Position numbers: made by a program
IMG/VR virus record: IMGVR_UViG_2534682078_000033
Reading direction: 5' to 3' (one strand)
Source: a virus
Lineage: Duplodnaviria; Heunggongvirae; Uroviricota; Caudoviricetes
Length of the DNA stretch: 8,767 nucleotides
Shown here: positions 6,001-8,767 of the stretch, piece after piece
How the letters are laid out: the number at the start of each line of letters is the position of its first letter
How positions within the stretch are numbered: the first letter of the stretch is position 1

Positions 6001-8767
6001 CTATCGCCCTTCTCCGCGACGATATGAAAAAGCTGGGGTATGAGATGAAGCACTTCCGGCGCTGGCTGTACAAGCTGGAAAATGATGGCGTAATCGTTAT
6101 TGACGGTGATGACGTGCGCCCGCTGTAAAAAGTGGGGAGTAAAAGTGGGGGGAGTGGGGAATTTAACAAAATTGAAACATAATTACCCACTTTCCCACCT
6201 GTATATACCCAAAAAAGTGGGGAGTAAAAAACATATTGAAAAACATAACGTTAGAATCACAAAAAAAAGAGGTGGGGAGACGGTGGGTAATTTCAAAAAG
6301 TGGGGAGCAAAAGTGGGGAGTAGTGGGGAATGAACAGAAAAACCAGAGATAAGACAGCGCCAAAATATAAAGCGTTAGACATGACAGAGCTTTCCTTAAA
6401 GGTGGCAATCAGAACGATAGACCGCCACGCGGGGGAAGGATACGCGAAGGAGCATCCCGAACTGATAAGCGCATTCATGACCACAGCGGCGGCAAACTTT
6501 GCCACGCTGACAGAACGGGAGATTGCCGAAGCGGAACAGGTAACAACCATCAACGTTAAAAGCGCTGGAGAATAACCGAAGAAGTGAGCACATAGCCGGA
6601 GCAATCCGGCTTTTTTTCGATCTCATATATCTTCAAAGATGGTTAATTAATGATAATCTATCGAAAATACTGGTTATGCAATGATAAGTATCAGGAGAAA
6701 ACAAAGTGGAAGAGATAAAGCAAAGCGCTACCGTGATGATTGATCATGAAATCCTTAACGAGCTTAAAAAGTTGCAGTTCGATATTGTGCGCCGGATGAA
6801 TGAATCAGGTATCTACGGCAGGGCGGCAACACCAACAATAGGGCATCTTGCGCGCGTACTGTTACGCGAACGCCTGGGCATTGCAACAAGTGAGGCGTAA
6901 ACAATGGCTATCACAGAACGCGAGGCAAGCATCATTAAAGCCATTGGCGAGGAAACAAGAGACACCATAGCGCCATTGATGGAAAAGATCGCAGAGCTTG
7001 AGACACGAATAAACAAGCTGAGTGATGAAGTTGAAGGCCTGATCTCGTTACTCGGTGAGCAATGACAGGGGGGGAGTGTTCCGGCCGGAAAGTCGATCGC
7101 CCTGGACACCGCCCCCCGTCTCATTCATAGAAAATTTTGCTTTTCAAAAAAGTTACACGAAAAGTTACACCCCCTCAAAACGAGGTTTTTGCATGGCATT
7201 AACGACCAAAAAAAAGCGGTTTGCTGATGCGTTATCAAAGGGCACAAATCCAACGGAAGCCGCGATACATGCGGGATACAGCGAAAAGACTGCAAGGGTT
7301 AAAGGCTGGCAGCTATCCAATGATCCGGAGGTGAAAAAGTATCTTAAGGCTGTAACTTCTGATGTAACTTTTCAGGTTACAAAACCGAAAAAAGTTACAA
7401 AGAAAGTTACCGAAAAAGTTACACCGGAACGGGCATCAATTAACACCATTGAGATGATGGATAACGGCCTACCCGACCCCATCAAAGCAATGGGCAGGAT
7501 ACTGATTGACAACATGGACACAGATCAAAAACTGGCTTTAGATGCCGCGTTTAAGCTGGCCCAGTTCACCCACCGCAAGATCGGCAGCATTGGGAAAAAA
7601 GAGGTTAAAAAACTCAATGCCGCTAATGTCTCCTCAAATCGGTTCCCCATCCCTAAGCCACCAACTGGCTTAAAACACTGAGGTAGCGAACTATGAGCGA
7701 ATACATCACAGACCCTATTGATGTACTCACGGAAATCATGAACGACAAGCAGCAGCCAACCGAAATACGGTTACAGGCTGCCGCTGTTCTGATGCCATAT
7801 TTTCACGAAACCCTAACCCCATGTTACCAGGAGGAAGAAGATGATGATTTCTAAAAACATGAAAGGCGTGTCGGCAGTTCGCGCCGCCAGCGTGCTTACA
7901 TCGTGTAAATTCAGCCATGCAGACGCAATTGAAATGACGAAAAAAAATGATCCGGCAGTATCGAAATTTCTTGAAAAATCCATTGTTGCCGGAATGACTA
8001 CGGATAATATGCCGTCGCTGGTGGCAGAGCCGATAGTAAGAGAGCTTGGCGAGTATATTTTTTCGCAGTCTGTACCAGGCAAGCTAATCAGCAGCGCGCT
8101 GAATCTTCCGTTTGGCGCAAAATTGCAGTCAATATCAGGCAAGGGTAGTAAATGGCTTAAAGAAGCCGAAGAAATCCCTGTCAAAGAGGGAGAAGTAAAC
8201 GAAAGTGCGCTAAAACTGTGCAAACTTGGCGCTATTGTGATGCTGAATAACGAGCTAATCAAATTTAGCACCCCTTGTACCAATTCAGCGATCAGAGACT
8301 TGATCACATCGGAATCGGTGAAAGAAATAGATAAAAAATTTCTTTCCAGTGACCAGGAGGTGGCGGGCGTATCCCCTGAGGGCGTGCTTAATGGTGCTGA
8401 TGAGGCCGAAAACTTCATAGAGCTTTTCAAAAAGCACATAGCGAACGGTAACACGCTTGCCACGTCGTCGCTAATCTTGCCCGTAGAAAACGCCTTACAG
8501 CTTACTGATGCTGAGTTCTGGCAGATAGAGCTTTTGAGAATACCGGTAATTGTGAGCGAACAGGCGGATCGCATGATGCTGATAGACGCTCAAAAGCTGA
8601 TTATTAACGTTGAAGCCACAGTTATAACCCCAACTGATGAGGCGGTAATAAAAACCGAATCAGGGACGGTTAGCCTTTTCCAGAATGACGCTACAGCGTT
8701 CAGGGCAATCACCTATTGCGGATGGCAAAAACTCGATAAGGCCGTCACCGTTCTGGCGAAAAGCTGA

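Follow-up and report, generated by a model that had tools for sequence, protein, structure and literature searches.

The 8,767-nucleotide stretch deposited as IMG/VR virus record IMGVR_UViG_2534682078_000033 (hereafter the window, meaning this stretch at its full length) carries a phage-inducible chromosomal island (PICI) found in Escherichia coli that make Shiga toxin (STEC), in which a gene for a small terminase subunit (TerS) and a gene for a homologue of HK97-fold major capsid proteins form a packaging and capsid module. On balance, we read this module, at 7066-8767, as part of a classical PICI that does not form capsids of its own and that redirects the packaging of a helper phage. Three lines of evidence carry this reading: the gene content and end point of the complete island, the architecture of the capsid protein and a short block upstream of terS that resembles the cohesive-end (cos) site of lambdoid prophages of STEC.

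A catalogued STEC island that ends in a lone capsid gene

The window is 100% identical to chromosomes of O111, O103 and O26 STEC, E. coli O111:H- 11128 included, where the island is inserted between tRNA-Pro/yejM and yejO. Its attachment (att) sites are 26-bp direct repeats (TTTTAGTTATACGTTTAGTTATACGG) lying 9,291 bp apart beside tRNA-Pro. The integrase is the first island gene at the left end, and its complete copy adjoins tRNA-Pro in O111 11128; at the other end, the stop codon of the capsid gene is the last base of the window and the right att copy follows it by ~270 bp, with nothing else after the capsid gene and with yejO as the next gene. Size, att repeats and integrase, together with alpA, rep and an iteron origin, agree with the criteria for Gram-negative PICIs (Fillol-Salom 2018), and the full annotated island has no tail, lysis or complete head module. 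Family scans, iterons and att repeats thus bear out an earlier reading of the window, made from its sequence alone (the sequence-only reading), which had described a chromosomal island with int, alpA, rep and ori.

The island is already catalogued as EcCI11128 and is therefore not new: Table S1 of Fillol-Salom et al. 2018 (ISME J, PMC6092414) lists it at AP010960.1 2855234-2864550, with a length of 9.3 kb, a yejM-luxR integration site and an att core matching the 26-bp repeat described here. The accessible text of that paper reports terS and capsid-morphogenesis homologues in some Gram-negative PICIs; within the same text, EcCI11128 itself was not studied by experiment and no helper, cos or capsid-homologue function is named for it. 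The name EcCI11128 was not found in any other paper of the literature searched. Of 5,426 complete E. coli genomes, 220 (about 4%) carry the module; the matches listed come almost entirely from O111, O26, O103 or O157 STEC. No related locus was found in species-representative genomes, and a megablast search with the module against 50,697 phage records returned no match, so that no known phage accounts for the module at the DNA level. A scan of viral contigs returned only prophage-style predictions from isolate genomes, and hence no sign of encapsidation.

Virion functions in the annotated full island of O111 11128 comprise terS and one capsid-protein gene, with no portal, protease, scaffold, connector, HNH or large terminase subunit (TerL) gene. 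The sequence-only reading had noted an atypical gene order, with neither portal nor protease between terS and the capsid gene, and had offered two possibilities, a capsid-forming or a packaging-redirecting satellite. The order is indeed unlike that of a phage head module, and neither missing gene appears between the two or after them before the island ends. Packaging redirection fits the evidence. The other possibility, a satellite that assembles capsids from a capsid protein it encodes and steals nothing but tails, has in its favor an intact, conserved HK97-fold capsid protein and an own TerS, but we consider it extremely improbable. Capsid-forming PICIs (cf-PICIs), such as EcCIEDL933, are ~15 kb in size and carry capsid-protease-portal-connectors-hnh-terS-terL (Alqurainy et al. 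2023, preprint 10.1101/2022.09.08.507074). EcCI11128 is like them in its PICI backbone, in encoding a capsid protein and a TerS itself and in being associated with HNH-type cos phages, but at 9.3 kb it has terS and the capsid gene only, in the reverse of the order seen in proteobacterial cf-PICIs. Absent from it are the protease, portal, connectors, HNH and TerL of the cf-PICI gene set, as well as any scaffold or delta domain. A degraded cf-PICI of the EcCIEDL933 type was also considered and rejected, as neither the capsid protein nor the TerS has similarity to those of Sakai Sp7/EcCIEDL933. Inspection of the downstream genes, proposed as a check in the sequence-only reading, found no portal, protease, connector or TerL and no further morphogenesis gene of any kind, and the island ends shortly after the capsid gene in four contexts. 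Of the two signs named in that reading as refuting its proposal, the first, a structure prediction without an HK97 fold, did not appear, whereas the second, a lack of more morphogenesis genes downstream, did. Given this gene content and the island end right after the capsid gene, the capsid-forming part of the earlier proposal is essentially refuted.

The position of the capsid gene as the last island gene recurs in three other chromosomal settings, four in all. In an O157:H7 island at cspD-clpS, the module is retained alongside another type of integrase and with RepA replaced by a DNA primase; of the further islands with the module, one lies beside phoQ and one has another integrase after it. 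The module is thus found with differing int and rep modules. A 52%-identical capsid homologue is followed by chromosomal type III secretion genes. Toward the end of small metagenomic islands, distant homologues of 328-332 aa that likewise have no delta domain (22% and 26% identity) occur without any other capsid gene. One of these islands, with the homologue at 7862-8860, has integrase, helix-turn-helix (HTH) and primase/helicase genes; the other is a contig with the homologue at 3785-4771, HTH and DnaB helicase genes and no integrase within the contig; host genes follow in both. As these distant homologues in unrelated bacteria show the same arrangement, the layout of a lone capsid gene at the island end is widespread.

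An HK97-fold capsid protein without a delta domain

The capsid protein is an HK97-fold protein, with family matches, profile and predicted structure in agreement. It scores above the cutoff for Pfam PF05065 Phage_capsid (28.3 bits, cutoff 24.2) and matches phrog_617 and phrog_10 ("major head protein"), while its score of 25.2 against the NCBIfam equivalog TIGR01554, just under the cutoff of 27.5, marks it as a diverged member. Single-sequence phmmer against the PDB gave noise only, and a profile built from 33 sequences matched the capsid proteins of Bxb1 (9d9w, 3e-18) and 80alpha (6b0x, 2.4e-11). An AlphaFold2 model from the 33-sequence alignment reached pLDDT 90.4 and pTM 0.87 (an alignment of 3 sequences gave pLDDT 36 and was unusable); in this model, residues 145-167 form a long helix, residues 94-136 a loop/strand region and the C-terminal part a beta-sheet. 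The best 50 Foldseek matches listed from the PDB consist entirely of encapsulins and HK97-fold capsid proteins, each at probability 1.00 and a TM of ~0.5; they include Bxb1, Muddy, SaPI1/80alpha, HK97, the SaPIbov5/phi12 procapsid, a gene transfer agent and encapsulins. The capsid assignment in the sequence-only reading was based on motif resemblance, and the concurrence of Pfam/PHROG, the 33-sequence profile, AlphaFold2 and Foldseek takes it beyond that, including the structure prediction that had been proposed there as a check.

An exhaustive representative profile search extended the 3, then 13, homologues of earlier searches to 1,138 capsid relatives, which fall into length classes of ~320 aa (like the island protein), ~450 aa and ~650 aa, the last being protease-capsid fusions. 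The match begins at about residue 100-116 in the ~450-aa capsid proteins, running over residues ~100-450, and at about residue 280-300 in the ~650-aa fusions. Over its full length, the island protein can be aligned with a 645-aa protease-capsid fusion, of which it covers residues 291-633, at 23% identity (E 2e-19). From these alignments, the delta/protease domain is absent from the capsid protein, which upholds the earlier statement that it has no delta domain, and no scaffold gene is recognizable in the island by family scans or annotation.

The module shows signs of purifying selection. Against a 97%-identical O157 island variant, a comparison that affords small counts, the capsid gene has a ratio of nonsynonymous to synonymous substitution rates (dN/dS) of 0.17, from 18 synonymous and 11 nonsynonymous changes; the ratio for terS is 0.29 and that for an open reading frame (ORF) of 53 aa at 7693-7854 is 0.15 (12 changes). 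Synonymous changes exceed the neutral expectation in all three. Full-length capsid homologues retain the same length at identities of 80%, of 52% and as low as 22%.

TerS, a cos-like block and a private repeat array

TerS is assigned by Pfam PF03592 Terminase_2 (E 4e-11; 44.1 bits, cutoff 26.1) and by phrog_641 (1.1e-42; 155 of 162 positions covered). Both alignments begin at ATG 7193, not at an upstream GTG, and RefSeq has the same coding sequence, so that the claim of a satellite encoding its own TerS holds. Its counterparts in Stx1/PPompW/Lys8385Vzw-type phages share 46% identity with it; the N-terminal HTH is kept, the C-terminal segment is kept most strongly and the central linker is divergent.

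Upstream of terS, the block at 7094-7123 matches positions 860-889 of the Stx1_499 phage at 28 of 30 positions (E 1e-7). This is the only significant DNA match between the terS-upstream region of the island and the phage head region, and the block is unique in the window, with 0 copies expected. The phage counterpart sits between the HNH gene and terS and has the same placement relative to terS. Lys8385Vzw has been reported as a cos phage with 3' cohesive ends, its cos being CGCCCCCCCT as determined by PhageTerm (PMC7946995), and CGCCCCCCGT at island positions 7110-7119 is the counterpart of this sequence. The GenBank record of Lys8385Vzw ends in ...GGACACCGCCCCCCCT and starts with CTCACGCAG, and therefore the physical ends of the phage lie inside the 30-bp block. 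Four island variants, 2% diverged overall, show one substitution in the cos-like block and none in the AAGTTAC repeats described below. From these matches we infer that 7094-7123 is a candidate cos site, which is new here. A G-run just upstream of the block, at 7068-7074, varies from 7 to 10 G among island variants, and the corresponding place in the candidate helper phage is taken by a G8 run.

The heptamer AAGTTAC is concentrated around the start of terS. Two direct copies lie upstream of the gene, at 7150 and 7162, and five lie within its 5' half, inverted at 7352 and 7364 and direct at 7392, 7404 and 7416. Seven of the nine copies in the window thus fall within 280 nt; the expectation for the whole window is 0.8, and none of 200 shuffles reached nine. 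Because the copies occur in both coding and noncoding DNA and in both orientations, they point to a role at the DNA level, and we infer that the array may be bound by TerS. At the equivalent position, between cos and terS (916-1044), the Stx1_499 phage has a distinct array of five GTTAAC-containing repeats, ATGTTAAC/CAGTTAAC, both direct and inverted, which are probably the phage's own TerS-binding sites.

This array could be read differently. TerS proteins of the Terminase_2 family and pac sites inside terS are typical of pac phages and of Staphylococcus aureus pathogenicity islands (SaPIs), and EcCI11128 has a Terminase_2-type TerS and a highly nonrandom repeat array that lies partly inside terS. 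The array would then be the pac site for headful packaging by the island TerS and the 30-bp block a recombination scar. We think this unlikely, as the closest TerS relatives come from phages with an adjacent HNH gene, one of which is a reported cos phage with 3' cohesive ends, and as the conserved block falls exactly over the reported cos and keeps its placement relative to terS.

Between terS and the capsid gene lies the 53-aa ORF at 7693-7854, which resembles the C-terminal part of a TerS. It matches phrog_641 positions 89-126 (E 8e-7), and tblastn places its relatives at the 3' ends of annotated terS genes in Burkholderia and other phages, with E values of 3e-3 and weaker. An alignment to residues 88-130 of the island TerS has a score reached by 10 of 2000 shuffles; the resemblance to the phage TerS is weak, with a score reached by 293 of 2000 shuffles, and BLASTP found no match of the ORF to the island or the phage TerS. 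The ORF is kept in the O157 variant and overlaps the start codon of the capsid gene, which suggests translational coupling. It may be a fragment of an older terS or, alternatively and by analogy with SaPI Ppi or PICI Rpp, it may be a TerS-tail mimic that disturbs terminase assembly.

The resemblance to a detached TerS C-terminal fragment also bears on the possibility that the capsid gene, perhaps together with this ORF, consists of phage head-module leftovers that were caught along with terS and play no role in the satellite. The relatives of the ORF and the best non-E. coli relatives of the capsid protein occur in overlapping sets of phages (Burkholderia, Moraxella, Salmonella FSL SP-016), and no function was found for the capsid homologue of another PICI, EcCICFT073. 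Such leftovers would, however, hardly be expected to consist of intact ORFs with dN/dS of 0.15-0.17 and to have full-length homologues of constant length across the identities given above, and in unrelated bacteria a distant homologue again closes small islands as their only capsid gene. We regard this explanation as very unlikely.

Candidate helper phages and a proposed mechanism

In tblastn searches against the 50,697 phage records, the best E. coli phage relatives of TerS and of the capsid protein are the same lambdoid STEC prophages, namely Shiga toxin (Stx)-converting phages of the Stx1a, Stx2a and Stx2c types, PPompW and Lys8385Vzw. These phages share the gene order HNH-terS-terL-protease/capsid-portal, and their 645-aa "prohead protease" is a Peptidase_S78-Phage_capsid fusion. 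Lys8385Vzw was induced with mitomycin C from strain RM8385, and the RM8385 chromosome carries the island at 100% identity. Among the 5,426 complete E. coli genomes, 1,253 have helper-type cos-terS sequences, the number in a single STEC genome reaching 8, so that many coresident prophages share one packaging specificity that could be exploited by a single satellite. Judged by homology, one shared strain and lineage distribution, the helpers are probably Stx-type HNH-cos phages.

In the mechanism that we propose, the helpers would be STEC prophages of the Stx1a/PPompW/Lys8385Vzw type, which are lambdoid cos phages with HNH; TerL, HNH and portal would come from them, as would tails and the protease-capsid fusion. 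Beside the helper-like cos cleavage site within 7094-7123, the island TerS would attach to its private AAGTTAC array and recruit the helper TerL/HNH to the cos block, such that island concatemers would be cut and packaged instead of phage DNA. Partnership with the helper TerL is plausible because the helper-like C-terminal region of TerS has been kept. The capsid paralogue, in turn, would co-assemble with the protease-scaffold-capsid fusion of the helper, as Ccm of SaPIbov5 does with the phi12 capsid protein, and would bias assembly toward satellite-sized shells and/or spoil helper heads. As its own scaffold/protease part is absent, the paralogue would enter the shell only alongside the helper fusion. 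Co-assembly, for which the argument is one of analogy, is the least certain step of this mechanism.

Comparison with known satellites

The closest parallel is the cos-type SaPI SaPIbov5 (Carpena 2016; Hawkins 2021), whose Ccm is a satellite capsid homologue that is 24% identical to the phi12 capsid protein and redirects capsid size, forming the pentamers of T=4 SaPIbov5 procapsids and being unable to assemble alone (PMC8569155). Both satellites have an HK97-fold homologue of the capsid protein of their helper (a candidate helper here), at 23% identity here and ~24% for Ccm, and no other head genes; both are associated with an HNH-type cos helper (again a candidate here) and carry a helper-like cos site. 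The two differ in that SaPIbov5 has no TerS, whereas EcCI11128 has a TerS with its own repeat array, and in that the candidate helper here has a protease-capsid fusion. Size redirection is established for Ccm, whereas the EcCI11128 protein is known here from its sequence and predicted structure.

Among Gram-negative PICIs, PmCI172 of Pasteurella multocida (7.8 kb) is described (PMC6092414) as having a capsid-protein homologue and as producing small capsids. It resembles EcCI11128 in being a small Gram-negative PICI with a capsid homologue, a likeness drawn from its description only, and differs in genus, in its contractile-tail helper and in that the gene responsible for small capsids was never identified. 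EcCICFT073 is more similar in organization, with an int, alpA, Icd-like, DUF4222 and primase/rep backbone, a capsid homologue at the end and cos packaging by a lambdoid helper. It differs in having a lambda-gpE-type capsid protein (PF03864) and a gpD-type decoration protein (PF02924) at 8669-10071 of its locus, in having no TerS and instead Rpp, which reprograms the phage TerS, and in its helpers, lambda and phi80. Homology of the EcCI11128 capsid protein to c1499 of EcCICFT073 was considered and rejected, as the latter belongs to PF03864 and is unrelated by BLASTP. The capsid homologue of each of the two islands thus matches, in family, the head proteins of the respective helper or candidate helper.

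The terS-carrying SaPIs SaPI1 and SaPIbov1 resemble EcCI11128 as proposed here in that a satellite TerS steers the helper TerL to satellite DNA, but in islands of the SaPI1 type packaging is of the pac/headful kind, and capsids are remodeled by CpmA/B scaffolds instead of a capsid paralogue. According to the tycheposon preprint, PICIs carry a predicted capsid protein or a TerS, and the PICI-like tycheposons have either terS or a capsid gene, whereas EcCI11128 has both.

Weighing the packaging-redirection reading

Several points weigh against a PICI that redirects helper packaging and remodels helper heads. The co-occurrence of island and helper rests on one strain, RM8385, and on lineage distribution, and one of the mismatches of the cos match falls inside the 10-nt cohesive-end sequence. 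Ccm has a cleaved 87-residue delta domain, whereas the EcCI11128 protein is without one. A 9.3-kb monomer is 18% of a 51-kb helper genome, and no single small triangulation (T) number fits neatly; as speculative arithmetic, two copies (18.6 kb) would take up ~85% of a shell whose capacity is scaled down from T=7 to T=4, and five copies (46.5 kb) would correspond to 91% of 51 kb. Finally, EcCICFT073, the only E. coli PICI for which such an experiment is available, is packaged in full-size capsids despite its capsid homologue, and its interference persisted when that homologue or the decoration homologue was deleted (PMC6092414), from which it follows that a capsid homologue in a Gram-negative PICI need not redirect size.

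The size arithmetic and the full-size capsids fit an alternative in which the capsid paralogue would serve interference alone. As a poison or decoy subunit, it would enter the capsomers of the helper and keep helper heads from assembling productively; no satellite-sized capsids would be made, and the island would be packaged as multimers in full-size heads. A paralogue without delta domain and protease would not be scaffolded or processed like the helper fusion, the full-size capsids of EcCICFT073 provide a precedent, and the arithmetic for pentamers of the 9.3-kb island agrees with it. Yet deletion of the capsid homologue (c1499) or of the decoration gene (c1500) of EcCICFT073 did not relieve interference with lambda, and the apparent coupling of the EcCI11128 gene to packaging genes, together with purifying selection within a mobile module, fits a role in the island's own transfer. 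We hold the interference-only explanation to be doubtful, if a good deal more credible than head-module leftovers, and on balance retain the reading of a classical PICI that redirects helper packaging.

Other genes and features of the island

The features of the window are compiled in Table 1. Two small ORFs, at 6706-6900 and 6904-7065, accompany the terS-capsid module; they are collinear and conserved in the O157 island (dN/dS 0.10 and 0.29), the same island that shares the module and has a different integrase and primase, and family scans gave no informative match for either. No sigma-70 promoter-like site was found on either strand over the entire packaging module (12000-15200 of the O111 11128 locus, equivalent to 6000-9200 in window numbering), against 5.0 +/- 2.2 expected, and a terminator-like hairpin at 6594-6611 follows the 81-aa ORF. 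These two observations suggest that 6706-8767 may be an activator-dependent late operon.

Table 1. Positions of the genes and DNA features discussed in the text, in window coordinates
Feature	Position	Strand	Evidence or remark
Tyrosine integrase	1..1074	+	Pfam Phage_integrase 2.3e-29; 5' end cut by the window
AlpA-like HTH regulator	1571..1777	+	phrog_66 1.4e-7; Pfam Phage_AlpA 17.8 bits, below cutoff 21
RepA/AAA_25 replicative helicase	4728..6128	+	Pfam AAA_25 2.6e-43; phrog_2850
Replication origin, three 18-bp iterons AAAAAGTGGGGAGTAAAA	6127..6312	+	Directly 3' of the rep gene
81-aa ORF, conserved phage/satellite protein	6330-6575		phrog_1231 (unknown function) 5.8e-48, full length
64-aa ORF	6706-6900	+	Accompanies the terS-capsid module
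53-aa coiled-coil-like ORF	6904-7065	+	Accompanies the terS-capsid module
cos-like block CGATCGCCCTGGACACCGCCCCCCGTCTCA (candidate)	7094..7123	+	In the 127-nt gap between ORF 6904-7065 and terS
Seven exact AAGTTAC heptamers, candidate TerS-binding (cosB/pac-like) sites	7146..7425	both orientations	Repeat count
terS, 162 aa	7193..7681	+	Pfam PF03592, phrog_641; ATG start, GAGG 8 nt upstream
53-aa ORF, TerS C-terminal-like, acidic tail EEEDDDF	7693..7854	+	phrog_641 profile, tblastn, shuffle test
HK97-fold major-capsid-protein homologue, 307/308 aa	7844..8767 (alternative ATG 7841)	+	Last island gene

In the O111 11128 locus, where locus positions minus 6001 give window positions, the iteron repeats (D4/D5) lie at 12128-12313. 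The leftward-transcribed regulatory region contains an imperfect 75-nt direct repeat (2091-2165 and 2769-2843; 83% identical; core CCTGTAAAGCAATGCGCCGTAGTACCTCAC.CCACGGCGCTGAT), which has no Rfam match and each copy of which lies near the start of a small minus-strand ORF resembling YlcI/YnfO (1899-2102 and 2838-3158). ORFs 3537-3995 and 3968-4201 are annotated by RefSeq in O111 11128 as one frameshifted hypothetical gene (window 3755-4200), and the island therefore has at least one decayed gene. No Rfam family was found in the window, and PADLOC returned no defense-system match for the module proteins.

Implications for satellites of Stx-converting phages

As a discovery, the analysis adds little to the catalogue: EcCI11128 already has a name as a PICI, and PICI-like satellites with a lone terS and/or capsid gene have been recognized before. 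What it provides is a pointer from the island to a medically relevant class of helpers, the Stx-converting cos phages of enterohemorrhagic E. coli, and to a specific candidate cleavage site at 7110-7119. Going further, we raise as a tentative proposal that these islands are dedicated satellites of Stx phages, which would combine a TerS whose private AAGTTAC repeats adjoin a helper-type cos cleavage site, a TerS-tail mimic (the 53-aa ORF) that disturbs terminase assembly in the helper and a capsid paralogue without a delta domain that joins the helper fusion to remodel or poison heads, and would thereby lower Stx-phage output. With similar reserve, we suggest that such a three-part hijack has not yet been described in one element and that it might represent a Gram-negative counterpart of Ccm. 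Should helper heads be remodeled by the paralogue, Ccm would have a first Gram-negative analogue, and it would follow that a capsid protein without a delta domain can be templated by the fusion protein of the helper. If the island lowers the yield of Stx phages, it would have a bearing on the spread of toxin genes.

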